A DNA stretch of 64,000 nt. Source: Gemmatimonadota bacterium (GTDB lineage: Bacteria > Latescibacterota > UBA2968 > UBA8231). Below are positions 44,967 through 63,699 of the stretch, in pieces (the first letter of the stretch is position 1; every line of letters starts with the position of its first letter). Under the pieces are notes generated by a model. It was given only the letters and a program-made list of their open reading frames with translations. It did not search any database and was not told the origin of the DNA. The stretch is from NCBI GenBank assembly GCA_038153405.1, contig JAYOYH010000007.1, forward strand, positions 43,096 to 107,095, in the 5' to 3' direction. The position numbers and the translations under genes are program-made.

Positions 44967-44968
44967 CC

Positions 44969-45418: not shown

Positions 45419-45421
45419 CGA

Positions 45422-46216: not shown

Positions 46217-46296
46217 GGCGCCAGCCCCCTCTATCGGGGCCCATTTAACGAAGGTTAACTCACCTGTTTAAACCGCACATCGTTTCATCTGCAAGT

Positions 46297-46341
46297 AATT
46301 CGACCAGAGAATGCACGGCCTCCGCACTCTCTGGTCGAATT
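46297..46341. promoter_or_regulatory. Perfect 14-bp inverted repeat AATTCGACCAGAGA-N17-TCTCTGGTCGAATT ending 3 nt before the ATG of the PPIase gene
   Basis: Seen directly: arms at 46297-46310 and 46328-46341. The hairpin would occlude the ribosome-binding region. This is a candidate operator or translational control element, or a terminator for the upstream gene. Confidence 0.5.
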
Positions 46342-46344
46342 GTA

Positions 46345-47985
46345 ATGTCGTCTTTGTCGCTCGCCCTATGTGGGCTGCTGATGGCCTGTGGCGGCGAGAA
46401 GCCGGCGCCCACACTGCTGGCACGAGTAGGCGATAAGTCCATCCATATCGACGATCTCATTGCTTTTGAGCGCGCCATTGAAAGCGGAGATTCGCTGAGC
46501 GCAGAGGCGCATCGCCAGCACCTTAATACGCTCGTCGATCGCGAAGTGCTGATCTTGGAAGCGCGAGCCCAAGGCTTGGAGACCGATGCCTATTTTCAGC
46601 AGGTACTGGCTGGTGATATTGAAACTAAACTAGCCGAAATGATGTTTAATCAGGAGGTGGCCGAGCGCTCTGAACCGACGCCGGAAGAAATTGAGGCGGC
46701 CTATGCCACCGGTGATTGGAAGCAGCAGGTCGTAAGCGTTGAGCTGTTCTTGCCCGACGAGGAAACGGCGCTTAGGGTGCGCGCGGAAATTCTCAATGGA
46801 ATGGACATCTTCGAGGCCGGTCGACTCTATTCGGTTGACCGCCTAATGCACATTCCGATGGGCGGTGCTCAGCAGTTTGTCTATTCCAAACAGGATGGAC
46901 CGGCCGAAGTCGTTCAGCGCGTTTTTCAGATTCCCGCCGGTAGTATTTCATCGCCTATACCGCTATTTAATGGCTTTGTCCTAGCCTACGTCGCCGAGTA
47001 CCGCGACGTCCAGCGTGCGGAGGTCGCCGACGAATTGGCCCGCTATGTTCGCAAGGAAAAGCGTCGCTTGCTGCGGGGGGCCTATTTGCAGCATTTGAAC
47101 AAAGCGCTCAATCTGCAGTTTTCATCGACCGGTTTAGAGCGCGCTGTTGCCCATTTGTCGCAGCTGAAAGCGGACGATTCGACGCCGCTGCCGGCCGACT
47201 CCAATGCGGTGGTCTATTCGTACGGTGACGCGTCTGCCGACCTGGGGACCGTTGTGGGATTGATGCAGGGTCCGGCGCGGCGCTGGCCCGAAATAAATTC
47301 GGAAAATATCGTCGCCGAAATAAAGAATACCGTATTGCCGAATCTGCTAATGGCCGCCAATGCGCGCGAACGCGATATCGATTCCTCGCCCGAGTTCCTC
47401 GCCTGGAAGAGCTGGCGCAGCGAGGATTTGCTCCTTTCGCTGCTGCGCAAAACCGTTTGCTCCGGCATCGAGGTGTCAGAAGATGAGGTGGTCTCGCACT
47501 ATCGGAAAGTGAGGCGGCGCTTTCGCATTCCCGGCTATGCCCGAGTGCGCGATGTGCTGGTGGCAACGCGGGAGGAAGCTGTTGCGCTCAAAGAGGCCGT
47601 TGAAAATGGAGCCGACTTTGCCCAGATCATTGAGGAGCATTCCCTGCGCAAGGGCAGCAAAAAAGGCGTGTTTCGCGTCTTTGCCCTACAGGCCAATAAA
47701 TATGGCAGCGGGTGGATGAACTACGCGTTTAACGTCCCTATCGGACAGCTTGAGGGGCCCGTGCAGGCCGAAGGGGGATTTTCCCTATTGGAAGTAGTCG
47801 AACGGGTCGATGATGCCTATTATTCCCTCGACGAGTCTAGGGTGCGCTCGGCGGTCACGCGCGATATGCAAAAAATAAAAGAACGCAGCGCGTTTAATGA
47901 ATTTGTAAGGGACGTGCGCGCAAGGCGCGCTGAGCAAATTACCCTATACCAAGATCATCTGGCAGCTGTTTGGGAGCGCCCGTAG
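46345..47985 (+). CDS. SurA/PpiD/PrsA-like periplasmic chaperone lipoprotein with a parvulin-type PPIase domain
   Basis: The signal ends LLMACGG (lipobox). The parvulin domain RVRDVLVATREEAVALKEAVENGADFAQIIEEHS..KG.....F..G.M...F....F....G.L.GPV....GF.LLEV is typical of PpiC/SurA. Confidence 0.75.
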   Translation: MSSLSLALCGLLMACGGEKPAPTLLARVGDKSIHIDDLIAFERAIESGDSLSAEAHRQHLNTLVDREVLILEARAQGLETDAYFQQVLAGDIETKLAEMMFNQEVAERSEPTPEEIEAAYATGDWKQQVVSVELFLPDEETALRVRAEILNGMDIFEAGRLYSVDRLMHIPMGGAQQFVYSKQDGPAEVVQRVFQIPAGSISSPIPLFNGFVLAYVAEYRDVQRAEVADELARYVRKEKRRLLRGAYLQHLNKALNLQFSSTGLERAVAHLSQLKADDSTPLPADSNAVVYSYGDASADLGTVVGLMQGPARRWPEINSENIVAEIKNTVLPNLLMAANARERDIDSSPEFLAWKSWRSEDLLLSLLRKTVCSGIEVSEDEVVSHYRKVRRRFRIPGYARVRDVLVATREEAVALKEAVENGADFAQIIEEHSLRKGSKKGVFRVFALQANKYGSGWMNYAFNVPIGQLEGPVQAEGGFSLLEVVERVDDAYYSLDESRVRSAVTRDMQKIKERSAFNEFVRDVRARRAEQITLYQDHLAAVWERP

Positions 47986-48104: not shown

Positions 48105-50105
48105 ATGGATCTGAACGTGGCCGATGCAAGAGGGCAGGAGCGCTTCGAAATAATGCCCGAAGACGCGCCGTTTGAGCCAGGGTTTAATATCAAGACGCTC
48201 TGGGCGGCGCTCTTTGTCGGATTCGTTATGTTGCCGGGGGCTATTTACCTCGGATTGGTGACCGGGCAGAGTATGGCCGGCGGCGCCGAGTGGGTGACGC
48301 TCATTCTCTTTATCGAGATTGCCAAGCGCACCTTTGTCCGCCTGCGCACACAAGAGATTATTATTCTCTACTGGGTGGCCGGTGGCTTGGTGCTGATGGG
48401 GGGGAAGCTAGGCACGGGGGCCGACCTGTTTGGCGGTCCGTTTGGCGTGCTCATTTGGGATCAGTATTTAATTCAATCCCCCCAGGCCAATGGCTTGGCC
48501 GAGCACATTCCGGATTGGGTCGTGCCGCCGCGCGGATCGGAAGCGCTGCTCGAGCGCAGCTTTCTGCACGCGGCCTGGATCAAGCCGATTTTCATATTGC
48601 TCGTAGCGGTGGTACTACAGCGGATCAATGCCCTCTCGCTAGGCTATGCGCTCTTTCGCATAACCCACGATATAGAGCGCTTGCCCTATCCCATGGCCTA
48701 TGTGCAGGCTGGGGGAGCTACCGCTCTTGCAGAAACCTCATCGCAAAAAGAAGGTTGGCGCTGGCACGTATTCAGCACGGGTACTTTTATCGGGGCGGTC
48801 TGGGGTCTGTTGTATGTCGTGGTGCCAACGCTGTCTTCTGTATTTCTCACGGAGACGGTTTCCGTTCTGCCCATTCCCTTTATTGATTTCACGGTGCCCA
48901 TGAAGTCGGTGCTGCCGGCTGCAGTAATCGGTTTGGCTACCGATCTCATTCACGTGCTCATTGGATTGGTGCTGCCCTTTTGGGTTGTCGTGGGCGTATT
49001 TTCATCGTCTATTCTAGCCAATCTGGTGGCCAACCCGCTGCTCTATGCCAGTGGGGTATTGCACACCTGGGAACCGGGTATGTCGGCTATTCCGACGATG
49101 ATCGCCAATTCGTTCGACTTTTGGCTGAGCTTCTCCATTGGGGGGGCTATCGTCGTGGCATTGGTCGGTTTTACCACGGCATTTATTTCGCTGCGCGCGG
49201 CACAGCGCTCCGTGGCGCAGCCATCTGATCGAGGCGGTCCCAGCCCCGAGCGCGGCGATATACGCATCGTCTATGCATTGGGTATCTGGGCGTTGAGCAC
49301 GCTGGCCTTTGTTGGGATGGTTTACTATCTGGTGCCCCAATTCCCCTGGTGGATAACTGCCTTTTTTGGCTTTGTGTGGACCCCTATTTACTCCTATATC
49401 GGCGCGCGCATGGTCGGTTTAACTGGCAGCCCACAGGGGGTGACTTTTCCCTACCTGCGCGAGGCGAGCTTCTATCTTTCGGGTTATCAGGGCGCGGGGA
49501 TTTGGTTTGCTCCCGTACCGATCTTCCAGTGGGGGTATGAGGCGCAGACCTTTAAGCAACTCGAGTTAACGCGCACTCGCTTCGGTTCGCTAATAAAAAT
49601 GACGGCCCTGACCCTCTTGGTCATGTTCGTCTGCTCGTTTTTGTTTTGGTCGCTCATTTGGAAATTGGGACCGATTCCCTCGTCGGCCTATCCCTATGTG
49701 CAAAAGCTCTGGCCCTTTCACGCGACGATGCAGGCTTTTTGGGTCAAATCGACGCTGCCAGGTGCCAGTTCGAACCTGCTGACGCAGATCATTCGCTGGG
49801 ACTATATCGGCATCGGGTTGCTCTTCAGCAGCGTGCTCTACGCCGCCCTCCACGTGCTGCACGCGCCGATGGCTATTTTCTACGGTTTTGTCGCTGGGCT
49901 CGGACAGTGGCCGCACTTTGTGATCTTAAATTTTATTGGAGCCATGCTCGGGCGCTTTTACCTGCAAAAGCGCTTTGGCGAGGAACGCTGGCGGGCCTAT
50001 GCGCCGATTTTGCTGGCCGGCTATTCCTGTGGGGTGGGACTCATTGGCATGAGTTCGATTGCCATTGCCCTGATTTCCAAAGCCGTTTCACAGGTCGTCT
50101 TTTAG
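48105..50105 (+). CDS. Large polytopic membrane protein (666 aa), uncharacterised family
   Basis: At least 12 hydrophobic helices, rich in W/Y/G, with no transporter signature recognised by eye. It is encoded immediately upstream of a related-looking 634-aa membrane protein. Confidence 0.6.
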   Translation: MDLNVADARGQERFEIMPEDAPFEPGFNIKTLWAALFVGFVMLPGAIYLGLVTGQSMAGGAEWVTLILFIEIAKRTFVRLRTQEIIILYWVAGGLVLMGGKLGTGADLFGGPFGVLIWDQYLIQSPQANGLAEHIPDWVVPPRGSEALLERSFLHAAWIKPIFILLVAVVLQRINALSLGYALFRITHDIERLPYPMAYVQAGGATALAETSSQKEGWRWHVFSTGTFIGAVWGLLYVVVPTLSSVFLTETVSVLPIPFIDFTVPMKSVLPAAVIGLATDLIHVLIGLVLPFWVVVGVFSSSILANLVANPLLYASGVLHTWEPGMSAIPTMIANSFDFWLSFSIGGAIVVALVGFTTAFISLRAAQRSVAQPSDRGGPSPERGDIRIVYALGIWALSTLAFVGMVYYLVPQFPWWITAFFGFVWTPIYSYIGARMVGLTGSPQGVTFPYLREASFYLSGYQGAGIWFAPVPIFQWGYEAQTFKQLELTRTRFGSLIKMTALTLLVMFVCSFLFWSLIWKLGPIPSSAYPYVQKLWPFHATMQAFWVKSTLPGASSNLLTQIIRWDYIGIGLLFSSVLYAALHVLHAPMAIFYGFVAGLGQWPHFVILNFIGAMLGRFYLQKRFGEERWRAYAPILLAGYSCGVGLIGMSSIAIALISKAVSQVVF

Positions 50106-50228
50106 CCCGATTATAGATCGTTATTTATTCGCTGTTTCCACGGCAATACGCCGCTCCACCGATCCCCTTGAGATGCGTTAATGGATGTGAAATGCGAGCC
50201 ATGCTGCGCACCATTTTGACGAACCGCC

Positions 50229-52133
50229 ATGACCTATAGATCGTTCATATTGGGCACCTTGGTGGTGCTGGCTGTGGTCTGCGGGGCGCCCTATGCCATC
50301 TGGATGGTGCGCTCGTCGGAAATCACGTGGTCCTATTTTCCCACCAGCGTTGGCTTTTGCTTTGTCGTCCTCTTTTTGCTCAATGCACTCATACAGAAGG
50401 TGAGCGGTCGGTCTTTTCTACAGCCAAGTGAGTGGGCGATTGTCGTGATTATGGGTTTGGCGGCCACGGGTATACCGACCTTTATCGTCGGCACGCTATT
50501 GGCCATTATTTCCAGTCCATACTACGGGGCAACGCCCGAAAATGACTGGGAGGGCAATATTCACGCTTTCCTCCCCGACTGGCTGGTGCCTAGCCCCGAA
50601 GGCGGAGCCATGCGCCATTTCTACGAGGGGCTGCCCGCCGGCCAGGAGGTGCCCTTTGACGTCTGGATGGGGCCGCTGTTCTGGTGGCTGAGTCTTATTT
50701 TTTCCATCTACTTTATCTGCTTTTGCATGGTCGTGCTGTTTCGAAGGCAGTGGGTTGAAAACGAGCGCTTGGTCTTTCCGCTGATGGAAATGCCGCGCCT
50801 ATTGGTCGACGAAGATGGTCGTCATCTGCTGCGTTCTAAGCTATTCTGGGCCGGGTGTGCTGTGCCCCTGTCTATGATGCTGTTTAACGTGGTGGGTTAT
50901 TTCTACATTGGGTTTCCGCAAATAAACTTTCACCACCCCGTTACGATCGAGTTGAGTCGCGATTTTCCCGCACTCTCGCTCATGCTCTACTTTCCCGTCA
51001 TCGGTTTTATGTATTTGGTGAGCACCTCCGTTTCGCTCAGCATCGTCGTCTTTTACCTAATCGCTGTTCTGCAGGAGGGGATTACCAATCGCATTGGCTA
51101 CGACGTGACGCGCCCCGATGCCTGTGTCTGGGGCATGCAGTCGCTTTCCTGGCAGGCGTGGGGCGGATTTACGGCGATGGTGCTGATCAGTTTGTGGATG
51201 GCTCGGCGACATCTGGGCGCTGTCGCTGGCCAGGTCTTTGCCGGGCAAAGGACCGTGGACGATAGCGAGGAGATGATTTCCTACCGCACAGCGGTTTACG
51301 GTTTCCTCTTGGGGTTGCTCTACGTGGTGGGCTGGCTGTGGAAATCCGGTATGGATCTGCACGTCGCCCTGCTCTTTATCGGCGCCGTATTGATCGCCTA
51401 TTACGGCGTTACCCGCCTGGTTATCCAGGCCGGCATTTACTTTCTGACCCCCCCAGTGGGTGCCCAAGCATTTGCCCTAGCCATAACCGGCACGAGCATT
51501 GGCGGTCACAACTTGGTTGCTCTGGGGCTCTCCTACGCCTGGTTTGGCGACGTGCAGTCGCTCTTTATGCCGGCGGCTGCGCACGGGGCGCGCCTAGCCG
51601 AAATTTATCGCGTGCGTCGCGGTATGGCTTGGGCGCTGGGGGCGGCCGTGCTGATCGGTTTTGTCGCCAATATCTACTTTGTCCTGACGCTGTGCTACAA
51701 GTTTGGCGCGGGCAATTTTGGCTCCTGGTACTTTGTTGCCGGGGGCGGAGCAGGAGGCATGGCTTTTAACGGAGTCATTCGCCATTTTAACGATCCCTGG
51801 CCGATGGATGTAAACAAGCTTAGCTACTTTGCCATTGGAGCATGTGCCTACGCGCTGCTGGCATTTTGTCAATATCGCTTTTACTGGTGGCCACTGTCGC
51901 CCGTAGGGATTGCCGTCGCACCACTGTGGATGACGCGTCTGATCGTGTTTTCGGTCTTTTTGGCTTGGGTGAGCAAGAGTGCCATTATGCGCTATGGGGG
52001 GATTAGCGCCTACCGCACGGCGCGGCCATTTTTCATGGGGCTGATCGCGGGTTATTTTCTCGGCGTCGGCATTTCCTACTGCATAGATGCCATTTGGTTT
52101 ATGGGGGACGGACACGTTTATTTTCACGGCTAG
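50229..52133 (+). CDS. Large polytopic membrane protein (634 aa), paralog of 60796..62802
   Basis: It shares extended blocks with the 60796..62802 product: GAPYAIW..SSEITWS(Y/F)FP..VGF.FV, MGL..TGIP.F..G, W..P.FWWLS.I...Y..CFC.VV..R.QWVE.ERL..PLME.P, FLAWV.KS.IMR.GGI. Confidence 0.7.
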   Translation: MTYRSFILGTLVVLAVVCGAPYAIWMVRSSEITWSYFPTSVGFCFVVLFLLNALIQKVSGRSFLQPSEWAIVVIMGLAATGIPTFIVGTLLAIISSPYYGATPENDWEGNIHAFLPDWLVPSPEGGAMRHFYEGLPAGQEVPFDVWMGPLFWWLSLIFSIYFICFCMVVLFRRQWVENERLVFPLMEMPRLLVDEDGRHLLRSKLFWAGCAVPLSMMLFNVVGYFYIGFPQINFHHPVTIELSRDFPALSLMLYFPVIGFMYLVSTSVSLSIVVFYLIAVLQEGITNRIGYDVTRPDACVWGMQSLSWQAWGGFTAMVLISLWMARRHLGAVAGQVFAGQRTVDDSEEMISYRTAVYGFLLGLLYVVGWLWKSGMDLHVALLFIGAVLIAYYGVTRLVIQAGIYFLTPPVGAQAFALAITGTSIGGHNLVALGLSYAWFGDVQSLFMPAAAHGARLAEIYRVRRGMAWALGAAVLIGFVANIYFVLTLCYKFGAGNFGSWYFVAGGGAGGMAFNGVIRHFNDPWPMDVNKLSYFAIGACAYALLAFCQYRFYWWPLSPVGIAVAPLWMTRLIVFSVFLAWVSKSAIMRYGGISAYRTARPFFMGLIAGYFLGVGISYCIDAIWFMGDGHVYFHG

Positions 52134-52190
52134 TGCGCCGTAGCTGTTGGGGCTATGGTCCCGAATGGGAAGGTTTCGAGGGAGTTGGCT

Positions 52191-55100
52191 ATGAAGAAAT
52201 TGCTCAGTGGAGCGGTCCTGGTCTTTGCGCTGGGAATGGTGCTGGCGCTGGCCGTTGGCGATCCGCAGCGGATCAATACGCGAGTAAATGCCTTTTTCGG
52301 CTGGGAGCCAACGCCTCCACGGGCCGAGCGCCTAGTGGGCGAAGAGGAGGCTGGGGCCCTGCGCGCGCTGGTATCGGGCATTCGCCGTCAGGATGTGGCT
52401 GCCGAGATTGAGCATTTTGCCGCTATGGGATCCCGCGTTACGGGCTATCCGGGTGAGCGCCGTGCCTATGAGTATATTCGCGACCGTTTTGCCGAATTGG
52501 GGTTAGATGATGTCCGCAGCGAGGCCTTTTCAGTCACAGTGCCCATTGACAAGGGAGGGCAATTGCACCTTCCCAACGGTCAGGTAAAAGAGCTCTACAG
52601 CCTGTGGCCCAACGGCGTGCGCACGCCTTCGCTGCCGGCTGGCGGCATACGAGGGCCGCTGGTATATGGCGGCAAGGGAACGCTGGAAGAGGTGGACGGT
52701 AAGGTGCTAGACGGCGCGATCGTCTTACTCGATTTCGACGGTGGGCAAAACTACTTGAACCTGGCCACGCTGGGAGTTCGAGCGGTCGTCTTCTTCGACA
52801 ACGGCGGCGTCAATCGCGAGCAGGCCGCCGACAAATTTCTCAAGGTCTCGGTCGACGTCCCGCGGTTTTGGATCGAGCGCCAAGATGCATTGGCGTTGGT
52901 AGACGAGCTGCAGCGCAATTCGGTGCAGGTTCGGGTCGAGGCGCAAATGGATTGGGAGGCGGTGGAGGCCCGCAATATCTACGGTTGGCTACCCGGCTCC
53001 GAGGCCATGATGCCGCCCAAAAGTCGCGAAGGCGATCAGGCGTGGAGGGAACAGGTCATCGTCGTGCAGGCCTATTACGATGCGATGTCGGTGGTCCCTG
53101 CTAGGGCGCCTGGGGCGGAAAATGCCGCCGGCATTGTCGCCCTGCTCAAACTGGCCGAAACGCTTAGGGAACAGCGACCGCAATACTCGGTGTTATTCTT
53201 GGCGACATCGGGGCATTTTCAGGGGCTGGAAGGCATCAACGACTTCCTCTATCGGCACAGTCGCGGCAGCGAGTATTTTCGCGAGCGCATGGCCGATGCC
53301 GAGCGCATAGACTTCGACCTAATGCTCTCGCTCGACCTATCGAGCCACGGCCAGCGCAGTGCTTCCTTTGGCATGGGGACCTTCTACAACCCCGAGTGGC
53401 AGACCGACAACTACGTCAAATACATGCTCACCCCTTATTCCAAGCGCTTAAGTCAGGCCATCGAAGAGATTTTTGCCGATTCCACGCGCCACTACGAGGG
53501 GATCGCGCCCCCCAAGCGCACGTGGAAAAATTTCATGCCTATTCCGCTGGCCTTTGCCAGCGAGGCGGCCGCCTTTGTCGGGCAAAAGGCCCTGGCGCTG
53601 GCCACGGCCAACGATGCGCGCAGAGCGGTCGACACGCCCCTCGACGTGCCCGAAGCAATGAATCTGGACAATCTCACCCGGCAGATCCGCACGCTGGCCG
53701 CTATGCTGGCATGGGCCGGGCGCGATGCCGAATTGCTCAAGCCGGGCAAGTTGGAACTGGAAGACTATGGGCACAGCCTAGCCGGGTCCATTTACTGGTT
53801 TGATCGGGACGTAAACTTTGCCGTGCCCAAATCGCCGGTGGCCGGTGCACTGGTGACCTACCAGCAGCAGGGGCCCAATTCGGTGGCCGGCGTGCGCACG
53901 CTCATGGTGCGCAAGGCCGACGACGAAGGGCGATTTCGCTTTGATATCATGCGCAATCGCTACGAAAATACCATCAAGGCCTACGAAATTGATGCGCGCG
54001 GTCAGATCGTTTCTGCGCCCGATATGGGGCAGGAAGGGGACGAGACCTATCCTATGGCTCACCCCTGGGGTTGGTGGGAAAATGAAATGCTGCAGGTCCT
54101 CTTTAAATGCCGCGCGCTGAGTCTGTTTGAAACGGTCGACTCGCGCTACCTATCGGTGCTCGATCACGTAACGGTACTCGACGATCGCGACGGTGTGCCG
54201 CAGTCGTGGGGGGCCGACTACGTCGAGCGCCAGAGCAACGAAGAGGGTAAGGTCACGCTGGCTTCCGTCGTCTACGCTCAGCCGGGCACGCGGGTCAAGG
54301 TGCTGATGAGCACCAGTCTGTTTGGCGTGCGCTACTTGCTCAGCGGTGCCCCCGATGCGCTCCTAGAAAACCCCGTTCAGCCGGAAGAAGTCGACGAGGG
54401 AGTGCTAAAGCGCGCGTTGGGCAATGGCTATCCCATCGACGCCGGCACCGTGCTGCGGCCGAGTTATGCAGCGGCGCGCGATATGTGGACGCTCGACGAC
54501 GCGCGCATCAAGCAGTTGGCCCGCTACGGGGTGCGCAACGACAAGTTTATGCGTCTGCACGAGGAGGCGCGCGCCGCGCTGATGGCGGCGCGCGAGCACC
54601 TCGATGCACTTCGCTACAGCCAGTACAAGGCCAGCACGCGGGAAGCGTGGGGCTTAGAGGGGCGAGGGTATCCAGATATCAAAGCAACGGCCGATGATAC
54701 CGTATACGGCGTGATTTTTTACTTTGCTCTGCTGCTGCCTTTCTCCTTTTGCTGCGAGCGGCTCTTTTTCGGCTTTGCCGACGTGCGCAGGCAGATGCTG
54801 GGCGCGGCGCTATTCTTTCTCGGCATCTTCCTCCTCATGCGCTTTATCCACCCGGCGTTTAAGTTGTCGTCATCGCCCTATATCATTTTCTTGGCCTTTG
54901 TAATTTTTGCCATTGGCGGCACGGCGCTCATGATGATTCTCGGCCGCTTTACGCGCGAGGTCAGCCAGCGCAAGCGCGCATCGGCCGGCGTACACGAGAC
55001 CGATATCGGCCGCATTAGCGCAACGGCAGCGGCGGTTGCACTGGGCATTTCGAACCTGCGCAAGCGCAAAGTCCGCACCCTACTAACCGTTGTCACATTA

Positions 55101-56810
55101 ACATTGCTAACATTTACGGCACAAGCATTTACGTCTGTTCAAAGTTATTTGAAGTACTATCAGATTCCGCGTCCTAACGCCCCAAGCTATGAAGGTGCTC
55201 TGCTGCGCGATCGCGGTTGGAAGGGCATGCAGCTTTCTGTGCTCGACTATGCGGAGAGCGCTTTCGGCAGCGAGGGCCAGGTGCTGCCGCGCTCCTGGCT
55301 GTCGACCCACCTGATTGGCGAGCGCGCCTACATCGATGTGCAGCGCCGGGAGACAGGGGCCGAAAGCTTTGCCTTCGCTATGATGGGCGTGGTCCCTGCG
55401 GAGCGCGATCTGATGGGGTATGGCGATATGCTGGTCGGTGCGGAGAGTCGCTTTTTTGCCGAAGGGGAGCGCGACGTATGCATTTTGCCCCAGGCGCTGG
55501 CCGAAATTCTCGGCATCGGCGCGCAGGACGTCGGCCGCGTCGAGGTGTGGATCATGGGACAGGCCTACCGCGTTATCGGCTTAATCGACGGGGAGCAAAT
55601 CGATGTGCTGCGCGATTTGGACAACGAGAGTCCCATGCCGGTCGATACGGTGGCCGAGGCGCAGAAAATGCAAGAAATGGCCAATCTCGACCCGCGCCTG
55701 ATGGATACGGCGGCCATCGAAACCTTTACGCACCTGCTGGCCAACAACGTCGTTTTATTGCCCTATCAGAAGGTGATTGATCTGGGGGGCACGCTGCGCT
55801 CAATCGCCCTGGCCGACTTTTCCGACCGCCAGGTTCTGCTCGACGAGGTCGAAGACTTTGTGTCTCGGGTGGCCGTTCCGCTCTTTGTCGGCGCCGACGA
55901 GCGCGTGCGGGTCTATACTTCAATGGGTTCGGCGTCGCTGTCGGGGATGGGCAACCTGTTCGTGCCGATGCTCATCGCCGCGCTGATCGTCCTCAATACC
56001 ATGTTGGGTTCGGTCTATGAGCGCTCGTCGGAAATTGGCGTATACAGTTCGGTGGGGCTGGCCCCCGGGCACATTTCCTCGCTCTTTATCGCCGAGAGTA
56101 TGGTATTTGCCATCGTCGGCGCGGTGCTGGGCTATCTCGTCGGCCAGTCGACTACCCTCTTGCTAACGCGCTACGAACTGCTGGGGGGGATGTTTCTCAA
56201 CTACTCATCGCTTTCGGCCATCACCTCGACGCTGATCGTCATGGCCACCGTAGTTCTTTCCACGCTCTATCCGGCCCGCAAAGCGGCGTCGATGTCCGTG
56301 CCCGATGTGACGCGGCGCTGGACCTTTCCCGAACCCGACGGCGATCGCTGGCAGTTCGACTTTCCCTTTACGCTGGCGCGCAACGATGCGCTGGGCAGCG
56401 GGGCTTACCTGCACCGGGTATTTTCCTCCTACGGCGAGGGATCGGTGGGCGATTTCATGACCGAAGACGTGGCGTTTCGTCGGGAGCGCGGCGGAGCCGA
56501 TCCGATTTACGCACTCGAACTCATGGTTTGGCTAGCTCCCTACGATTTGGGCGTGAGTCAGCGCGTCGTCTTGCGCATGCTGCCGACGGAGGATATCGCC
56601 GGCATCTATCGCATCGAAATGCAGATAGAGCGGATCAGCGGCGACGTGGCCTCGTGGAAGCGACTCAATTCAGGTTTCCTCAACGTGCTGCGCAAGCGCT
56701 TTCTCGTATGGCGCACTATTCCCCAGGAAATGCGCGCAGCATACCGGCAGCAGGGAGACGAATTGGCCGAGGCATCCACCGTGCCGCAGGGGGCATCTGC
56801 CCGCACTTAG
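52191..56810 (+). CDS. 1551-aa fusion protein: signal/TM, then PA plus M28-peptidase-like ectodomain with degenerate active-site motifs, then C-terminal FtsX/MacB-type ABC permease domain(s)
   Basis: GAGGGAG Shine-Dalgarno before ATG 52191 (MKKLLSGAVLVFALG). Residues ~100-420 show the PA-domain and M28 layout, but with YYDAMS where HxDS is expected, GAENAAG where GA(D/N)DDGSG is expected, and ATSGHFQG where the EE(x)GLxGS-type motif is expected. Residues ~860-1450 show MacB/FtsX topology: TM, a large loop, then three TMs with SSVGLAPGHISSLFIAESMVFAIVGAVLGYLVG...LYPARKAASMSVPDV. No ATPase gene is adjacent. Confidence 0.7.
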   Translation: MKKLLSGAVLVFALGMVLALAVGDPQRINTRVNAFFGWEPTPPRAERLVGEEEAGALRALVSGIRRQDVAAEIEHFAAMGSRVTGYPGERRAYEYIRDRFAELGLDDVRSEAFSVTVPIDKGGQLHLPNGQVKELYSLWPNGVRTPSLPAGGIRGPLVYGGKGTLEEVDGKVLDGAIVLLDFDGGQNYLNLATLGVRAVVFFDNGGVNREQAADKFLKVSVDVPRFWIERQDALALVDELQRNSVQVRVEAQMDWEAVEARNIYGWLPGSEAMMPPKSREGDQAWREQVIVVQAYYDAMSVVPARAPGAENAAGIVALLKLAETLREQRPQYSVLFLATSGHFQGLEGINDFLYRHSRGSEYFRERMADAERIDFDLMLSLDLSSHGQRSASFGMGTFYNPEWQTDNYVKYMLTPYSKRLSQAIEEIFADSTRHYEGIAPPKRTWKNFMPIPLAFASEAAAFVGQKALALATANDARRAVDTPLDVPEAMNLDNLTRQIRTLAAMLAWAGRDAELLKPGKLELEDYGHSLAGSIYWFDRDVNFAVPKSPVAGALVTYQQQGPNSVAGVRTLMVRKADDEGRFRFDIMRNRYENTIKAYEIDARGQIVSAPDMGQEGDETYPMAHPWGWWENEMLQVLFKCRALSLFETVDSRYLSVLDHVTVLDDRDGVPQSWGADYVERQSNEEGKVTLASVVYAQPGTRVKVLMSTSLFGVRYLLSGAPDALLENPVQPEEVDEGVLKRALGNGYPIDAGTVLRPSYAAARDMWTLDDARIKQLARYGVRNDKFMRLHEEARAALMAAREHLDALRYSQYKASTREAWGLEGRGYPDIKATADDTVYGVIFYFALLLPFSFCCERLFFGFADVRRQMLGAALFFLGIFLLMRFIHPAFKLSSSPYIIFLAFVIFAIGGTALMMILGRFTREVSQRKRASAGVHETDIGRISATAAAVALGISNLRKRKVRTLLTVVTLTLLTFTAQAFTSVQSYLKYYQIPRPNAPSYEGALLRDRGWKGMQLSVLDYAESAFGSEGQVLPRSWLSTHLIGERAYIDVQRRETGAESFAFAMMGVVPAERDLMGYGDMLVGAESRFFAEGERDVCILPQALAEILGIGAQDVGRVEVWIMGQAYRVIGLIDGEQIDVLRDLDNESPMPVDTVAEAQKMQEMANLDPRLMDTAAIETFTHLLANNVVLLPYQKVIDLGGTLRSIALADFSDRQVLLDEVEDFVSRVAVPLFVGADERVRVYTSMGSASLSGMGNLFVPMLIAALIVLNTMLGSVYERSSEIGVYSSVGLAPGHISSLFIAESMVFAIVGAVLGYLVGQSTTLLLTRYELLGGMFLNYSSLSAITSTLIVMATVVLSTLYPARKAASMSVPDVTRRWTFPEPDGDRWQFDFPFTLARNDALGSGAYLHRVFSSYGEGSVGDFMTEDVAFRRERGGADPIYALELMVWLAPYDLGVSQRVVLRMLPTEDIAGIYRIEMQIERISGDVASWKRLNSGFLNVLRKRFLVWRTIPQEMRAAYRQQGDELAEASTVPQGASART

Positions 56811-57925
56811 AGGAGCACTTCGCGCCCGCTGCGCGCCGACTCGTAGCAGGCGTCGATGACCTTTTGCAAGTTGAGGAGTTGGCGCGCATCCTGCATATCC
56901 CACGTTTTGCCGCTTAGCAGATTGTCGACGATTGCTGCGTCTTGGGCGTGCACGCTGTCAAACCAGTTGTCGCCGGCCAGTTCGGGGGTGCGGTCGACGA
57001 CCTCGCCCTCTTCGTCGACGAGGACCGAGAAGGGCGCACCGGTTATCGTGCCCTTTTCCGCTGTGAGCTGAAAGCTGTGAAAGTCCGTCACTTCGCTGCA
57101 CCAGTTGCCCTCGAGCGCTAAATAACTGCCGTTGTCAAAGCGCACAAAGGCCCCCAGCAGGTCTTCGGCATCGTAGCGGGCGTGCACGTGTTTGCCCAGC
57201 TTGGGGCCGCGCTTAGTGGGAAAGAGGCGCGAAGTGGAAGCGCTTACGGACACGGGATTGGGCGAGAGACTGACCCACATGACGAGATCCAGCGTGTGCA
57301 CCAAGGTCGAGGCCAGCACGCCGCCGCCCGAGGTGGCCAAGTGGTAGTGTGGGGCCCAGGCCGGCGGAACGGTATGGCAGCCCCAAGCCTTTAAATACAC
57401 GGGGTTCCCCAATGCGCCTTCGACCATGAGCTTGCGCGCATGCTGCGAGGAGGGCAGGTGGCGCATATTGGTGCCCAATTGCACCTGCCGACCAACCTTT
57501 TGGGCCCTTTGAAGCACCTCTGTAGCTTCTTCCGAATTCATCATAAAAGGCTTTTCGCACAGGATATTGGCTCCTGCATCAAGGCTGGCCAATGCCATGA
57601 GACAATGCGTATTGGGCATGGTGGCAATAATGACCAAATCGAGCGCGTCTCCCTCGAGCATGGTTCGGTAGTCGTTGGCTTTGCGCGCCTCGGGCCACTG
57701 CTGACCGGCCGCTTCTAAGCGCTCTGCATCGAGGTCGCATAGGGCGGTAACGGTGACGCGCTCTTCTCCGATTGCTTGGAGACCGCGGAAGTGGACGTTG
57801 GCCTGGGTGCCGCAGCCGATCATGCCGATGCGGATGGGTGAGTTTGCCATGTTCGTATGCCTTCTTGGCGATAGGGGTATTCGGCTTACATCTGTGGTGT
57901 GGAATTGTAGGTAAGCATATGGCAC
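56807..57925 (-). CDS. Gfo/Idh/MocA-family NAD(P)-dependent oxidoreductase
   Basis: The N-terminal IRIGMIGCGTQANVHF Rossmann motif and a conserved EKP motif (ILCEKPFMMN). Confidence 0.85.
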   Translation of the reverse strand: MPYAYLQFHTTDVSRIPLSPRRHTNMANSPIRIGMIGCGTQANVHFRGLQAIGEERVTVTALCDLDAERLEAAGQQWPEARKANDYRTMLEGDALDLVIIATMPNTHCLMALASLDAGANILCEKPFMMNSEEATEVLQRAQKVGRQVQLGTNMRHLPSSQHARKLMVEGALGNPVYLKAWGCHTVPPAWAPHYHLATSGGGVLASTLVHTLDLVMWVSLSPNPVSVSASTSRLFPTKRGPKLGKHVHARYDAEDLLGAFVRFDNGSYLALEGNWCSEVTDFHSFQLTAEKGTITGAPFSVLVDEEGEVVDRTPELAGDNWFDSVHAQDAAIVDNLLSGKTWDMQDARQLLNLQKVIDACYESARSGREVLL

Positions 57926-57946
57926 CTGCGCAAGGCGATGCAGGGC

Positions 57947-58636
57947 CTAATCGACATATTCCGTGCGTTCGGAGTTGAGCAGGTCGCGCACGGACTCAAT
58001 ATTGTCCTGGCCTAAGCGGACGCTTCGGGTCAGGTCTTCTTCGGCCTGCCGCACCGCGGGTAGTTTTTGGCATACGGCATCGAGTTGATCGCGCGGAATG
58101 ACAACGACGCCGTCGCGATCGGCCACGGCGACTTCGCCCGAATCGACGCAGGTGCCTCCCATAACCACGGGTAGCCCCACCGTACCGGGCCCGTTGCGCG
58201 TGCAGGAATTGGGGGTGATACCCATGCAAAAGGTGGGGATGCCCACGGGTATGATACCGTCTATATCGCGCATGAGTCCATCCGTCACAAAGCCGACAAT
58301 GCCTTTGTTGCGCGCCATCGACAGCATAATATCACCAGCTACGCAGGTTTTGGTAAAGGTATCGGTAGCCACGAAAAGGGCGTCGCCTGGCTGGGCCAAT
58401 TCAAGCGCGGCAAAAACGGCCAGATTATCCCCTGGACCCGGGTGACAGGTGACGATGGGGGCGGTGAGTTTGCAGTTGTGCGGATCGAGGGCCTTGATGC
58501 GGTAGTCGAGGGCGCCGCGGCCATTCATGCAGTCTACGATAAAGCCGGTAGGGGTATTGCGCAGCGCGCGCAAAATAGAACTGTCGGGCCGCGGAATATG
58601 GCGGCGCACCGTAAGTAGGGGAGGATCTTTGATCAT
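57947..58636 (-). CDS. RraA-family protein (RraA / 4-hydroxy-4-methyl-2-oxoglutarate aldolase / demethylmenaquinone methyltransferase-like fold)
   Basis: GDNLAVFAALELAQPGDALFVAT...GDIMLSMARNKGIVGFVTDGLMRD and a GEVAVADRDGVVVIP tail are characteristic of the RraA-like family. Confidence 0.8.
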   Translation of the reverse strand: MIKDPPLLTVRRHIPRPDSSILRALRNTPTGFIVDCMNGRGALDYRIKALDPHNCKLTAPIVTCHPGPGDNLAVFAALELAQPGDALFVATDTFTKTCVAGDIMLSMARNKGIVGFVTDGLMRDIDGIIPVGIPTFCMGITPNSCTRNGPGTVGLPVVMGGTCVDSGEVAVADRDGVVVIPRDQLDAVCQKLPAVRQAEEDLTRSVRLGQDNIESVRDLLNSERTEYVD

Positions 58637-58763
58637 TGGGTTATCTCCGTGTGGGCGCTGCGTTTTCTACATAAAAAGTGGATGAGATAAAGTAGCTAAG
58701 CATGGGGTAAACGGCGATGGCTTGGCTCCCCATGTATGTCTGAATCGACCTCGGACAGAAGGC

Positions 58764-59855
58764 TTAGTGGGCAATGACTACCTGAGCCGGGTTGATTGCC
58801 CCATAGCGGCCCTTATTCGCGGTGATTTCAAAGGCCTCCGGCACCTTGTCGAGGCCCTCCAATAGGTGGCGAATGGTAGGCTTCATGGAAATGCGGCCAG
58901 TGGCGACTAGGCGCACGGTGTATTCGAGGTGGGCCTGCGAACTGATATCGGGAAAGAGGTAGCGCAGGCTGCGCTCGCGGAAGACGTCGATATCCAATTC
59001 CAGCGGGGTGCCAAACCACGAAACGCCGACCAGTTTGCCGCCCGAGCGCACCGAATACAGGGCCTGTTTTAGGGCGCGGTCACCGGCCAGGCCTTGTTTG
59101 GGACTGCCGCCGGCGCACTCAAATACCACGTCGGCCCCCTCGCCTCCAGTTAGGTCGAGGATGGCTTCGACCGGATTGCAGTCGCTGGCGTTAATGGCGT
59201 GGTCCGCTCCCAATGCGCGCGAAAGCTGGCAGGCTTCGGGGCGCACGTCGACAGTGATAAGCTGACCGGCTCCGCAGGCGCGGGCCGCTTGCATGCTCTC
59301 AATGCCCATGCTACCCTGACCAAATATGACCACGCTATCGCCGGGGCGTATTTGCGCCGTTTCGACACCGGCTATGCTGTCGCTCAGCGACTGCAGCGTC
59401 GCCGCTTCGCTGTCCGAGATGCGCTCGTCGACCTTTACTAGCGAAATGGCCGGTAGCAGGGCGCGCTCGGCAAAGCAGCCGGGCAGTTGAAACCCGATAA
59501 TGGGGCCCTTGCGACAGTCGTTGCCGCGCTCGGAGCGGCACATCGGGCACAGCCCGCAGGGCAGTTTGGCGCGGGCGGCCACGCGGTCGCCAACGGCGTA
59601 ACCCTCTACGTCCGTGCCCACTTCGACTATGCGCGCGCAAAACTCGTGCCCGAATAGCTGCAGCGGGGCGTCGCGCTCTAAGCGCCGTTTGGTCTGCTCG
59701 TACGCAAGGGTCGGTATGCCGAAGGCCAACTGTGCTTCAGTAACGCTCGGCTGCACGACGAGAGGTTCCACCAATACGTGGTCTGCCGGACAGGTGGGCA
59801 TGTCGATATCGTCCAAGCGCATATCGCCAAATGCGTAAAATCGCCATGCTTTCAT
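58764..59855 (-). CDS. Zn-dependent medium-chain alcohol dehydrogenase (sorbitol/threonine dehydrogenase-like)
   Basis: GHEFCARIVEVG is the catalytic Zn GHE motif. CGLCPMCRSERGNDC is the structural Zn Cys cluster. GQGSMGIESMQAARACGA is the NAD-binding GxGxxG. Confidence 0.85.
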   Translation of the reverse strand: MKAWRFYAFGDMRLDDIDMPTCPADHVLVEPLVVQPSVTEAQLAFGIPTLAYEQTKRRLERDAPLQLFGHEFCARIVEVGTDVEGYAVGDRVAARAKLPCGLCPMCRSERGNDCRKGPIIGFQLPGCFAERALLPAISLVKVDERISDSEAATLQSLSDSIAGVETAQIRPGDSVVIFGQGSMGIESMQAARACGAGQLITVDVRPEACQLSRALGADHAINASDCNPVEAILDLTGGEGADVVFECAGGSPKQGLAGDRALKQALYSVRSGGKLVGVSWFGTPLELDIDVFRERSLRYLFPDISSQAHLEYTVRLVATGRISMKPTIRHLLEGLDKVPEAFEITANKGRYGAINPAQVVIAH

Positions 59856-59973
59856 AGGGTTTCTCCGGTGAAATAGGTAGCAGCAAGGTAGGGTTTAGCA
59901 CGCTGGGCAACAAGGGTCTTGCTGCGCTTTCTGCAAAGGGGGAAATTACAGCAAATATCTCTGGAGGTTACCA

Positions 59974-60789
59974 TTGAACACGCACCCAACTTTTCGCTCC
60001 GATCAGCGCGGTGAGATCCTCAACTTTTTTCGCAGCCAGCAATACGCCGTTGTCGGCGATGCTCTTTGCGCGACGGAAGTGGCCGAACTCAACCAATTGG
60101 TCGACCGCTCCAAGGCGCACTATCCTGCTCTGTGGGGCATCGGCAGCGCCGATATCCACACGCACGGCCAGATCCTCGTCGACCATCCGGAAATGGATCC
60201 CTTTGCCCGCCACCCGCTGGCGCTGGGGTTGGTAAAGGACCTCTTGGGGCCAGAGCCGCGCTTCGCGCAAATAGATTTTCGCGACGTGCCGCCGGGCGTT
60301 GGCGAGAAGGCGGCGCTGCCCTTCCATCGCGATCGCGGATTCGTGCCGGCTGCCTTTTGGCAAGAAAATCTACTTCAATGCGCGTACGTATGCGCCATCT
60401 ACTACTTGAGCGATGTGGGGGATGGGGACACCTGTTTTTGCGTGGTGCCCAACAGCCATCCTTATCCGAGTCGCGAAGAGGCCGCGCTGCAGATGGGGGA
60501 TGCATACGTAGAAATTCCCATTCGCGGATCTGCGGGCACGATGGTGCTCTACAACATAGCGATATACCACACGCGGGTGCTCGGCCAGAGGGATGCCGGA
60601 CGCCGCACGATGCATCACTACTTCAGTCGCGAGGGGAATCCGCCCCTGACCAATTGGGCGCTGGTGCCGCGCCGTTTGGCCCAACACGAAGACGGCGAGA
60701 CGCGCACCTACTACAGCCAGTGGACCGAGGCGATGCAGGTCTATGCAGAAGCGGGTTTTAGCCGTGCCGATACAGACGGAAAGAAATAG
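59974..60789 (+). CDS. Phytanoyl-CoA dioxygenase (PhyH)-family Fe(II)/2OG oxygenase (second copy)
   Basis: PFHRDRGF (HxD) and a later IAIYHTRV His, with a length of about 270 aa. It is related in layout to 5251..6096. Confidence 0.65.
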   Translation: MNTHPTFRSDQRGEILNFFRSQQYAVVGDALCATEVAELNQLVDRSKAHYPALWGIGSADIHTHGQILVDHPEMDPFARHPLALGLVKDLLGPEPRFAQIDFRDVPPGVGEKAALPFHRDRGFVPAAFWQENLLQCAYVCAIYYLSDVGDGDTCFCVVPNSHPYPSREEAALQMGDAYVEIPIRGSAGTMVLYNIAIYHTRVLGQRDAGRRTMHHYFSREGNPPLTNWALVPRRLAQHEDGETRTYYSQWTEAMQVYAEAGFSRADTDGKK

Positions 60790-60795
60790 ACGGTG

Positions 60796-62802
60796 CTACC
60801 CGTGCAAAATGGGATGGCCGTTGCCGGGAAAAAAAATCATATCGACGATAAAGGAGATGCCGACCCCGCTAAAGTGGCCTATGATAAGGCCTAGGAAAAA
60901 AGGAGCGGCCTTGCGATAGAGATCGATGCCGCCGAAGCGCATAATGAGACTTTTAGCCGCCCAGGCGATAAAGATGGCTGCCGCCTGATTGCGAATCATC
61001 CACACGGAAGATATGGCCAATCCAACGGGGTGGAGCGGCCACCATGGAAAGCGGTACTGCAAAAAAGTCAGGACCGACATAGCCGCCGAGCCGATGGCAA
61101 AGAACGTCAGCTTTTGCGCGTGAAAATCGGCTGGACTCTTGATCTTAGCCATGACGTCGTCAAACGAGCGCACGCCGGCGCCGGAGGATACGCGGAAGAA
61201 CCACGAGTTGAAATTCGATGCGCCCTGATCGTAGGCCATAGTGATGACATAGGCCAGCGTGGAGAAAAAGCCAACGCCTAGAGCCAGAATAATGGCTAGC
61301 CCTAGGCCGCGTCGGGTCATGCGCATGGCGTCGTGCAGGCGGGCAGCGTGGGCGGCCGAGGGCATAAAGATCGACTGTACGTCTCCGAAGAAAGAGTAGC
61401 TCAGGCCGAGGGCCGCTAAACCGCTGGGATTTATGGAGGCCGTTCCCAGCGTCATCATGGTCATCGCCTGGCTAACGATGGGCGTGGTCATATAAAATAC
61501 GCCGGTCTGCACCACTAGGCGCGTTATGCCTAGGTAGGCGATGAGTACGCCGGCCAGAAAAAAAGCGGCCACCGAAAACTCCATGCCCGCTCGGTAGAGC
61601 CAGGCCAGCATGTAGGAAACGCCGAGGAGCAATCCCACGCTGGCGGCGCGATAGGACATCAACTCGCGCGAGTCGTCGATCTCTATGCTGGTATTCCACG
61701 CTTTGCGCGCCACGTCTTTGAGGTGGTCGCGCGCCATCCACAGGCTCCACAGCACCAGCGTTACAAAGGCCCCCCAGCACTGCCACGACGTCGAGGGAAG
61801 GCCCCAGACAAAGGTATCGCCCTCCGTTACGCCCAAACCAAAGCGGTTGAAGAGTCCTTCCTCGAGCATAGTGAGGATAAAGAAAAACCATATGCTAAAC
61901 GTGATGTTTAGGTTGGCAAAATACATAAAGCCAACCACGGGGAAGTAGTAGCGGATATTGATCGTTGGAAAGCCGTGGGCTATCTGTATGGGGTGTTCCC
62001 AGGCGATCGTGGGAAAGAAGTGAAAGAAGAAGCCGACGATATTCCACAGGGCAATAAAGAGGGGAATGGCGGCACCGGCCCAGAACACTTTGTTGCGCAT
62101 GATGGCCGGCAGCAGAGAGGGCGAATCTGCATCGGCGACGAGGGCTTGGGGCACTTCCATCAGCGGGTAGGCCAGCCGTTCGCGCTCGACCCACTGCTTG
62201 CGCAGGATGACGACGAGGCAGAAGCAGACCAAGTAGAGGGTCCAGATAAAGCTCAGCCACCAAAACATCGGCATAGTCCAGGCGTTGAGCAGGGTGCTCC
62301 AAGGAATGGGCTCGCCAATGGGAAGACCCTCGAAGAACCAGGTCATGGCTAGCCCCTCGTTCGAGGGGAGCAGCCAGGCGGGAAGGTGGGGCAGAACGTG
62401 AGTGCCCCACTGATTTTCCGCCGAGGCGAAATAGTAGGGCGTCGTCGGAATGGACAGAACGAAGCCCATCATGAAAATGGGTATACCGGTGGTGACTAGA
62501 CCCATGACGACGACGGTAATCATCTCAGCCGGTTGCAGCGCCCAGCGCGGGTTGAGGGCTTTGAGCAGGGCGTTGAGGCCAATGAGGCAGACAAAGAAAA
62601 AGCCGACGGCAATGGGAAAGAATGACCAAGTAATTTCAGACGAACCCAGCACCCAGATGGCATAGGGCGCGCCTAGGCACACGACGAGGACCTGCAGCAG
62701 GCCCAGCAGCAGGGAGCGCAGCGTCAGTCCGCTGGTCAAGCCAGACTGTGCGGAGGGCTCGCCGTCTGATGGATCAGATACGGGCATTGTAGAATTGGGC
62801 AC
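60796..62802 (-). CDS. Large polytopic membrane protein (668 aa), paralog of 50229..52133
   Basis: See the shared blocks listed for 50229..52133. There are 12 or more TM helices. Confidence 0.7.
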   Translation of the reverse strand: MPNSTMPVSDPSDGEPSAQSGLTSGLTLRSLLLGLLQVLVVCLGAPYAIWVLGSSEITWSFFPIAVGFFFVCLIGLNALLKALNPRWALQPAEMITVVVMGLVTTGIPIFMMGFVLSIPTTPYYFASAENQWGTHVLPHLPAWLLPSNEGLAMTWFFEGLPIGEPIPWSTLLNAWTMPMFWWLSFIWTLYLVCFCLVVILRKQWVERERLAYPLMEVPQALVADADSPSLLPAIMRNKVFWAGAAIPLFIALWNIVGFFFHFFPTIAWEHPIQIAHGFPTINIRYYFPVVGFMYFANLNITFSIWFFFILTMLEEGLFNRFGLGVTEGDTFVWGLPSTSWQCWGAFVTLVLWSLWMARDHLKDVARKAWNTSIEIDDSRELMSYRAASVGLLLGVSYMLAWLYRAGMEFSVAAFFLAGVLIAYLGITRLVVQTGVFYMTTPIVSQAMTMMTLGTASINPSGLAALGLSYSFFGDVQSIFMPSAAHAARLHDAMRMTRRGLGLAIILALGVGFFSTLAYVITMAYDQGASNFNSWFFRVSSGAGVRSFDDVMAKIKSPADFHAQKLTFFAIGSAAMSVLTFLQYRFPWWPLHPVGLAISSVWMIRNQAAAIFIAWAAKSLIMRFGGIDLYRKAAPFFLGLIIGHFSGVGISFIVDMIFFPGNGHPILHG

Positions 62803-62877: not shown

Positions 62878-63699
62878 TTACTCGGGCAGTCGTCCCAGCG
62901 GCGTTTGCGGTCCCGTCAGCACCGCGTGGCCCCAAGTGCTGTCGTCATCGCCGTTGCCATAGATCATAAAGTGTCCACCGTAGGGGCCGCCGTCGGGATC
63001 GGTGTGGACGATTTCCATGCTGTATTCATCGCCGACCTGCGGCGGCTGCCAGCGCGGGTCACTCTGGCCAAAGGTCGCCGCCATATCCACGCGGGCTTCC
63101 AAGACAAAATCACCGGCATGGCCGCTAAAGCGAACCTGCCATTCAACGGCGGGAATGGTTTCCTCTACGTAGGATTTGCCCGGTGCGCCGTGCCGCCACC
63201 AGGCATGCGAAGGCTTTTGCTCGGTAGAAGCGGTAAAGCAAAAGGCATTGTCGCCCTGGGCAAAAAGTTCAGGGGCGCGATCGCGGGGCCCTTCCATGAA
63301 CCAGCAGATCGCATCGCGAAAATACCAGCGCTTATCGGCTGGCTGTGGGTCATCTACATCGTTTACATTATCGCTTACTTCGGCGCCAAAGTAGAAGTGC
63401 GTGGCATCCCAAGCGGCGTAGTAGCGCGCGCTGAGGTCCTCTTCTATGGGGCCTTCATCACCGTGGTTGGTGAGGCGGTTGCGTGCTCCTCGGTCGAGTG
63501 CGTAGGGTGCCGATTGGCTGATGCGCCGCATATCCCACACGCCATCGCTGTGCGCGCGATCTTTCCATTCGCTCAGATCACCATCAATCGACGGAGGCGC
63601 GAGCAAGAGGGGGATGCGCAGTGGAGTCGGCGATTCGAATGCCCAGAGCGTGGCCGGTACGAGCAGTGCTACGATTGCAATATTGATCATGAACGTCAC
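62878..63699 (-). CDS. Secreted CBM9-like protein (second copy)
   Basis: A signal peptide (MINIAIVALLVPATLWAFE) is followed by APPSIDGDLSEWKD (the CBM9 opening motif) and the W/D-rich YYAAWDATHFYFGAEVSDNVNDVDDP, which parallels 29415..30347. Confidence 0.6.
   Translation of the reverse strand: MTFMINIAIVALLVPATLWAFESPTPLRIPLLLAPPSIDGDLSEWKDRAHSDGVWDMRRISQSAPYALDRGARNRLTNHGDEGPIEEDLSARYYAAWDATHFYFGAEVSDNVNDVDDPQPADKRWYFRDAICWFMEGPRDRAPELFAQGDNAFCFTASTEQKPSHAWWRHGAPGKSYVEETIPAVEWQVRFSGHAGDFVLEARVDMAATFGQSDPRWQPPQVGDEYSMEIVHTDPDGGPYGGHFMIYGNGDDDSTWGHAVLTGPQTPLGRLPE

Follow-up and report, generated by a model that had tools for sequence, protein, structure and literature searches.

Gene content of the locus

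We analysed a 64,000-nucleotide stretch of contig JAYOYH010000007.1 from a Gemmatimonadota bacterium (assembly GCA_038153405.1; Latescibacterota in the GTDB lineage), referred to below as the window, with a focus on three genes for large membrane proteins that we call A, B and C (Table 1). Our overall reading is that these three proteins are probably inner-membrane secondary transporters of the oligopeptide transporter/Yellow-Stripe-like (OPT/YSL) superfamily. An open reading frame (ORF) check agreed with the positions and sizes that an initial annotation, made from the DNA letters, had given for all three genes. For C, the closest homolog in the database has its start 5 codons further on, so that this protein is perhaps 663 residues long. 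All three products are strongly hydrophobic and polytopic in a simple hydropathy scan, a method that merges or misses transmembrane segments. Across the region as a whole, the closest genomic relatives are metagenome-assembled genomes (MAGs) labelled Latescibacterota or Gemmatimonadota, and a tblastn search against 72,556 plasmids returned no relatives of A or B.

B and C belong to a catalogued family and A is their remote homolog

B and C are clear paralogs, as had been proposed initially (BLASTP, 49% identity over 627 residues, 607 bits). The accompanying claim that they form an unrecognised family did not survive a Pfam search: both proteins score far above the gathering scores of PF20581 (DUF6785; 25 bits) and PF20580 (DUF6784; 26.4 bits). 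B matches the former with E 4e-100 (336.1 bits) and the latter with E 1e-21 (77.4 bits); the corresponding values for C are E 6e-110 (368.5 bits) and E 5e-26 (91.2 bits). DUF6785 precedes DUF6784 along both proteins, both models are matched end to end, and all listed homologs of B and C likewise match the pair. B and C are ordinary members of this catalogued, uncharacterised DUF6785+DUF6784 family. A DUF6785 profile, run against metagenome proteins clustered at 50% identity, hit 6,153 representatives (E<=1e-3), of which 2,014 remained at E<=1e-30. We found no paper that mentions DUF6785, DUF6784, PF20581 or PF20580 in the literature searched, and an NCBIfam scan assigned none of A, B and C to a family.

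A has no Pfam match, even at E 10, to any model including PF20581 and PF20580. Its homologs are 60-97% identical, originate from MAGs labelled Latescibacterota or "Gemmatimonadetes", and carry the NCBI name 'peptide transporter'. The Pfam OPT model, PF03169, is matched by 2 of 53 A-family members (best E 7e-7), and the family member P0113 lies marginally above its cut-off (26.5 vs 25.8 bits). BLASTP comparisons of A with B and with C gave no significant similarity, the sole signal being a short patch (HIPDWVVP...ERLPYP vs HLPAWLLP...ERLAYP). The motifs IPDW..P and ERLxFP are common to A and B/C and stand in register. An hhalign comparison of the 53 A-family proteins with a set of 124 diverse DUF6785 proteins, which share 27-50% identity with B, aligned the two families with a probability of 91.9% and E 6.8e-7 over 557 aligned columns, covering residues 22-648 of A and 1-615 of B. 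The reversed A alignment scored a probability of 1.1% and five block-shuffled versions scored 3-8%; given these low control scores, hydrophobicity does not explain the signal between A and DUF6785. A is homologous to B and C remotely but along its full length, and is not a member of DUF6785/DUF6784. The kinship that had been proposed from size and hydrophobicity pattern thus stands at the level of profiles, and not at the level of similarity that BLASTP detects.

Predicted structures match the OPT/Yellow-Stripe fold

AlphaFold2 gave a confident model of B (81-sequence alignment, pLDDT 90.4, pTM 0.91) and a fair model of A (pLDDT 76.6, pTM 0.81). Both are mostly helical, with about 15-17 long helices when broken helices and hairpins are counted in; OPT proteins have 16 (or 17) transmembrane segments that arose by internal duplication (PMC3061005). 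In Foldseek searches of the PDB, the only real match was HvYS1, the barley Yellow Stripe 1 transporter of the OPT/YSL type (7WST/7WSR), which B matched with E 2.6e-7, probability 1.0 and TM scores of 0.65/0.68, and A with E 3e-9 and TM scores of 0.61-0.68. Every other match had a TM score of ~0.1, and we therefore rejected the MFS, APC/LeuT, RND and ABC folds for A and B. A search of the PDB with the sequence profiles of the families returned a single match, a glutamate-tRNA ligase at E 1, which we judged to be noise.

As judged from these models, A, B and C share the OPT/YS1 fold, composed of the YS core and scaffold domains, and the DUF6785 and DUF6784 models jointly cover one fold of the OPT type. 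We consider it very likely that all three proteins belong to the OPT superfamily, and A on the one hand and B/C on the other probably represent two deeply diverged bacterial branches of it. In keeping with the characterised OPT/YSL proteins (PF03169; TCDB 2.A.67; HvYS1), A, B and C have ~600-700 residues and are polytopic and all-helical, a few A-family members barely pass PF03169, and the association with a peptidase-like domain has an OPT precedent (PMC3061005). In contrast, they are only 12-15% identical to HvYS1, B and C fall into a Pfam family pair of their own, and the FtsX-type partner of B has no described counterpart among OPT proteins.

The initial annotation had recognised no OPT signature and could not place the family. 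At the sequence level, none of the three proteins reaches the Pfam OPT model, but B and C are placed by their strong matches to DUF6785 and DUF6784; at the level of fold and superfamily, the HvYS1 match of the A and B models makes them placeable. Its view that no well-known transporter family with characterised members applies fails at the fold and superfamily level only, and DUF6785 itself has no characterised member.

B is paired with an M28-like/FtsX protein

B ends 21 bp before the start of a gene for a large protein with a peptidase-like domain and an FtsX domain, in line with the gene order noted initially, and this pairing recurs in related genomes. Pfam detects FtsX with E 6e-15 (residues 1270-1381) and Peptidase_M28 with E 6e-8 in this partner protein. 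The predicted order is a signal anchor, an extracytoplasmic PA/M28-like domain, three transmembrane helices, a MacB/FtsX-type module of four transmembrane helices, and a C-terminal cytoplasmic domain of ~170 residues. In the hydropathy scan, the FtsX unit consists of a transmembrane helix at residues 977-995, ~265 extracytoplasmic residues and three transmembrane helices within residues 1260-1374. The partner thus contains an FtsX module of four transmembrane helices with a periplasmic domain between the first and the second. This layout, here in a C-terminal FtsX domain, is that of MacB/FtsX-type (type VII ABC) permeases such as MacB, LolCE and FtsEX; the NCBIfam models for MacB, LolC/E and FtsX give weak, far sub-threshold matches to the partner, and its homolog P0410 matches MacB_PCD. 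The partner differs from these systems in three respects: it has neither a nucleotide-binding domain nor a linked ABC ATPase gene, it carries an extra N-terminal part of ~930 residues with the PA/M28-like domain and three further transmembrane helices, and its constant neighbour is an OPT-fold protein.

A signature of ABC ATPases, taken as Walker A plus LSGGQ, was absent from the 64-kb window and from the 10 kb around the M28/FtsX gene in each of the ~35 loci that carry this gene; only four loci, all without that gene, have the signature. No ABC_tran match was obtained among the window ORFs scanned with Pfam, which were the main non-overlapping ORFs of at least 150 residues. The missing linked ATPase is unusual for an FtsX-type permease, and a gene for one may lie elsewhere in the genome.

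The M28-like domain aligns with the Aneurinibacillus aminopeptidase 2EK8 over ~280 residues, PA insert included. Relative to this enzyme, HHDS is replaced by YYDA, NDD by ENA and EE by HF (encoded at about 53060..53225), which turns H-x-D into Y-Y-D, the bridging Asp into Glu and Glu-Glu into His-Phe; the comparison covers the H-x-D, D and E-E motifs of the co-catalytic zinc ligands and the catalytic Glu. All orthologs checked, among them the fused and marine proteins described below, have these replacements as well. Given these substitutions, the M28-like domain is probably non-catalytic or mechanistically unlike M28 aminopeptidases, and judging from its residues it is probably not a conventional aminopeptidase. 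M28-like homologs that are not peptidases exist, for example the transferrin receptor. Since the catalytic motifs are replaced, we downgraded an active aminopeptidase that feeds a peptide importer as a firm mechanism.

We followed the gene pair through a context sample of 75 loci from species-representative genomes, nearly all of them Latescibacterota. Of 29 B orthologs, 25 are followed by the M28/FtsX gene in the same orientation, and in 11 it is adjacent. A is found upstream within 6 kb in 25 of 26 B orthologs (at least 60% identity) and is adjacent in only 4; in most genomes the gap between A and B holds NHL-repeat genes on the other strand. In a marine lineage, a DUF6785 gene whose product (cluster) is ~33% identical to B overlaps the start of a 1551-residue M28/FtsX gene, and neither A nor ExbBD is nearby. 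One metagenome protein, P0410 (2120 residues), fuses a full-length M28/FtsX homolog (37% identity over ~1500 residues) to DUF6785+DUF6784. It is encoded by a single 6,363-nt ORF (L076 6001..12363) on a 123-kb contig, and its domains run in the opposite order to the genes of the window. Promoter-like sites between 45300 and 57200 of the window occur at the shuffled expectation, and terminator-like sites are modestly above it (23 vs 15.3 expected, sd 4.3), none of the latter in the gaps between A and B or between B and the M28/FtsX gene.

Neighbourhoods of A, C and distant DUF6785 genes

Table 1. Positions of A, B, C and associated features in the 64,000-nucleotide window
Feature	Position	Strand	Remarks
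Block upstream of A, including TPR protein	40527..47985
ExbB	43836..44504	+	Pfam MotA_ExbB
ExbD	44520..44966	+	Pfam ExbD
ExbD	44969..45418	+	Pfam ExbD
Lipoprotein of unknown family	45422..46216	+
SurA-like peptidyl-prolyl isomerase	46345..47985	+	Pfam Rotamase_2
A	48105..50105	+	intact ORF, 666 aa; predicted divergent OPT-fold membrane protein
B	50229..52133	+	intact ORF, 634 aa; DUF6785+DUF6784, predicted OPT fold
M28-like/FtsX protein, partner of B	52155..56810	+	1551 aa; Pfam FtsX and Peptidase_M28
C	60796..62802	-	intact ORF, 668 aa; DUF6785+DUF6784, paralog of B
CBM9/DOMON-like protein, secreted or anchored	62878..63699	-	directly upstream of C; N-terminal hydrophobic segment

A is the last gene of an envelope cluster in the order TPR protein, ExbB, ExbD, ExbD, lipoprotein, SurA-like peptidyl-prolyl isomerase and A. 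The same order is found directly 5' of A in about 30 Latescibacterota loci, and we recognised no TonB-like gene in the block upstream of A. One Latescibacterota genome carries four tandem DUF6785 genes directly after the isomerase gene in place of the A-B arrangement (L029 10001..18172). In the window, two genes for proteins of ~1000 residues, at 30381..33518 (1045 residues) and 37501..40482, encode paralogs that are 35% identical and have no Pfam match; the former comes after a CBM9-like gene at 29370..30347 and the latter precedes the TPR-ExbB-ExbD cluster that ends in A. Their acidic DxDxD-type repeats and C-terminal Phe suggest that they are large outer-membrane proteins. A second, weaker ExbB/MotA-like gene lies at 14495..15271 and follows two ORFs, a weak TPR ORF (12241..13356) and one that Pfam does not match (13356..14507); 12241..15271 may be another envelope energy-transduction cluster.

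C is paired with the CBM9-like gene directly upstream of it, as annotated initially. The match of the latter to Pfam CBM9_1 (E 7.7e-5, 23.1 bits) is just under the gathering score of 23.4 bits. This pairing recurs in related genomes: such a gene lies directly upstream of 9 of 47 C orthologs, and 19 of 26 have one on their own strand within 9 kb. Of the two CBM9-like genes named initially, the other one, at 29370..30347, is not paired with A, B or C in the window. C orthologs are often tandemly duplicated, and many genomes have two C-type genes in tandem. In three loci (L002, L003 and L027), the CBM9-C pair is convergent with the M28/FtsX gene, at or near its end. In the window, the M28/FtsX gene and C are separated by extra genes at 56807..60789, which encode a GFO/IDH/MocA oxidoreductase, an RraA-like protein, a Zn-dependent dehydrogenase (Zn-ADH) and a PhyH protein; of these, L002 and L003 have only a GFO-type gene in between, and L027 has none.

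Distant DUF6785 genes occur in a variety of contexts. In two loci the gene comes directly after leuB, in the same orientation, within an ilvBHC-leuA-leuB cluster (L079 10001..12007 and L080 6203..8209), which hints at an amino-acid-related role of this paralog. Elsewhere the gene is flanked by those for a short-chain dehydrogenase and an MR_MLE enzyme, with sulfatase, PhyH and M19 dipeptidase genes in the vicinity. A sugar ABC system and genes for a CBM9 protein and a glycosidase-like GH67N/DUF4838 protein adjoin a further copy, and a beta-eliminating lyase gene adjoins another. Several Latescibacterota genomes carry three to five or more DUF6785 paralogs, and this expansion in different catabolic contexts suggests diversified substrate specificity.

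Some further gene types of the window recur at these distant loci. FG-GAP/ASPIC-UnbV repeat proteins are encoded at 17510..19195, 21930..23657 and 23662..26121, one of them with TPR repeats, and proteins of this type are also encoded on the flanks of the DUF6785 fusion gene in L076 and of one distant DUF6785 gene. PhyH-type dioxygenase and sulfatase genes are found in the window at 5251..6096, 6041..7615 (the sulfatase) and 59974..60789, and both types recur near DUF6785 or M28/FtsX modules in the distant contigs L076, L077 and L082.

Proposed function and alternatives

Members of the OPT family mediate proton-coupled uptake of oligopeptides, glutathione or metal chelates, and to our knowledge every characterised OPT-fold protein is a transporter. 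By analogy, a transporter function is likely for A, B and C as well. They would act as ion-coupled, probably proton-coupled, carriers of the elevator type that import small organic solutes from the periplasm, with oligopeptides as our default guess and oligosaccharides or chelates as possible cargo. B would act with, and probably physically touch, its M28-like/FtsX partner, whose PA/M28-like domain may bind or process the substrate. C would work with the secreted CBM9/DOMON-like protein, and A may form the inner-membrane end of the ExbB/ExbD-linked envelope cluster.

Peptides are the default because of the OPT precedent, the contexts of prokaryotic OPTs and the lifestyle of the phylum. Prokaryotic OPTs are widespread and uncharacterised, their genome context often points to peptides, and some are fused to proteases (PMC3061005); for Latescibacteria, a saprophytic lifestyle is predicted and they are described as predicted degraders of algal polysaccharides (PMC4454575). 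As a substrate assignment for A, B and C, peptides are tentative, and we would not call them the expected outcome.

Several observations weigh against reading A, B and C as OPT-superfamily transporters with these partners and this cargo. None of the three proteins matches PF03169, and neither family's sequence profile finds HvYS1 in the PDB, even at E<=10; the OPT link of B and C consequently rests on predicted structure and on remote homology to A. We found no experimentally studied member of either DUF6785 or the A family. The synteny comes mostly from one phylum and from related genomes, so that the counts are inflated and part of the conservation may reflect shared ancestry rather than selection. 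Other distant DUF6785 genes than that of the marine lineage lie in mixed contexts without an M28/FtsX partner, and the fusion occurs in only one cluster among the 150 matches listed. The peptide guess is further weakened by the M28 domain, which is without the canonical metal-ligand and catalytic residues; together, this degenerate site and the mixed contexts leave room for oligosaccharides or other solutes.

The first of the other solutes to consider is carbohydrate. In this account, which is essentially the idea of the initial annotation, the proteins would be OPT-fold importers of oligosaccharides or modified sugars derived from algal or sulfated polysaccharides, and the CBM9-like protein would be a glycan-binding helper. 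The association of a CBM9-like gene with C in many loci fits this account, as do the distant DUF6785 gene beside the sugar ABC system, the CBM9 protein and the GH67N/DUF4838 protein, the sulfatase and HGSNAT-like genes near DUF6785-M28/FtsX modules, the sulfatase in the window, the predicted degradation of algal polysaccharides by Latescibacteria (PMC4454575), and the proposal, made on context, that one prokaryotic OPT subcluster handles xylan oligosaccharides (PMC3061005). However, the CBM9 match next to C is under the Pfam threshold, the window has no glycoside hydrolase gene adjacent to A, B or C, DUF6785 also occurs in amino-acid-related contexts, and according to an OPT review no member has been shown experimentally to carry sugars (PMC3061005). 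On balance we hold carbohydrate import to be unlikely. Import of metal chelates of the siderophore or nicotianamine kind, with A as the inner-membrane step after ExbB/ExbD-energised uptake across the outer membrane, would be in keeping with the Fe(III)-phytosiderophore transporter HvYS1 as the sole structural match, with an 'iron-siderophore subdivision' of the OPT tree that includes prokaryotic OPTs (PMC3061005), and with the constant position of A as the last gene of the ExbB-ExbD-ExbD cluster, itself located after the TPR protein and a ~1000-residue probable outer-membrane protein. Yet HvYS1 was the sole OPT-type structure matched in the PDB searches we ran and is hence uninformative on the substrate, we saw no siderophore biosynthesis, Fur-type or iron-related genes in the window, prokaryotic members are mostly peptide transporters by context (PMC3061005), and several paralogs per genome in catabolic contexts better fit nutrient uptake; we therefore give chelate import very little chance.

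A different question is whether B carries a solute here at all. B and its DUF6785 relatives could instead couple energy to, or act as a scaffold for, a mechanotransmission protein of the FtsX type whose ABC ATPase has been lost, and the pair would extract, present or release a ligand of the M28-like domain in the periplasm. The FtsX module lacks both an ATPase domain and an ABC ATPase signature in its vicinity, DUF6785 is its only constant neighbour across distant lineages and is fused to it once, and the M28 domain looks non-catalytic while its substituted residues are still conserved. Against this stand the possibility of an ATPase encoded elsewhere in the genome and the many DUF6785 genes, C included, without an adjacent FtsX gene, which argue that the family has a function of its own. 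The OPT-fold proteins characterised so far are, as stated above, transporters, and we know of no precedent for a secondary carrier that drives an FtsX module. We regard this non-carrier role as highly improbable. A bolder version joins both ideas: B and the M28-like/FtsX protein might form one machine, in which an OPT-fold carrier driven by an ion gradient replaces the ABC ATPase and powers or gates the FtsX module, and the degenerate M28/PA domain captures a periplasmic ligand. We consider this quite improbable; if true, it would be a previously undescribed coupling of a secondary transporter to a type VII ABC-like permease.

Significance for the family and the phylum

The claim of an unplaceable family dissolves, and what merits follow-up is the structure-based placement of the DUF pair and the possible coupling between OPT-fold and FtsX proteins. 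DUF6785/DUF6784 itself was already catalogued; what is new is to see in it a large bacterial branch of the OPT superfamily, so far unstudied, whose conserved partner is unusual. The OPT/Yellow-Stripe placement gives a testable mechanism to a very large family (>6,000 clusters) and enlarges a superfamily of transporters that has hardly been studied in prokaryotes. As an architecture, the conserved pairing of DUF6785 with FtsX, fused in one case, is unexpected and may point to a new accessory or coupling mechanism, and the placement makes nutrient uptake better readable in an uncultured, globally distributed phylum.

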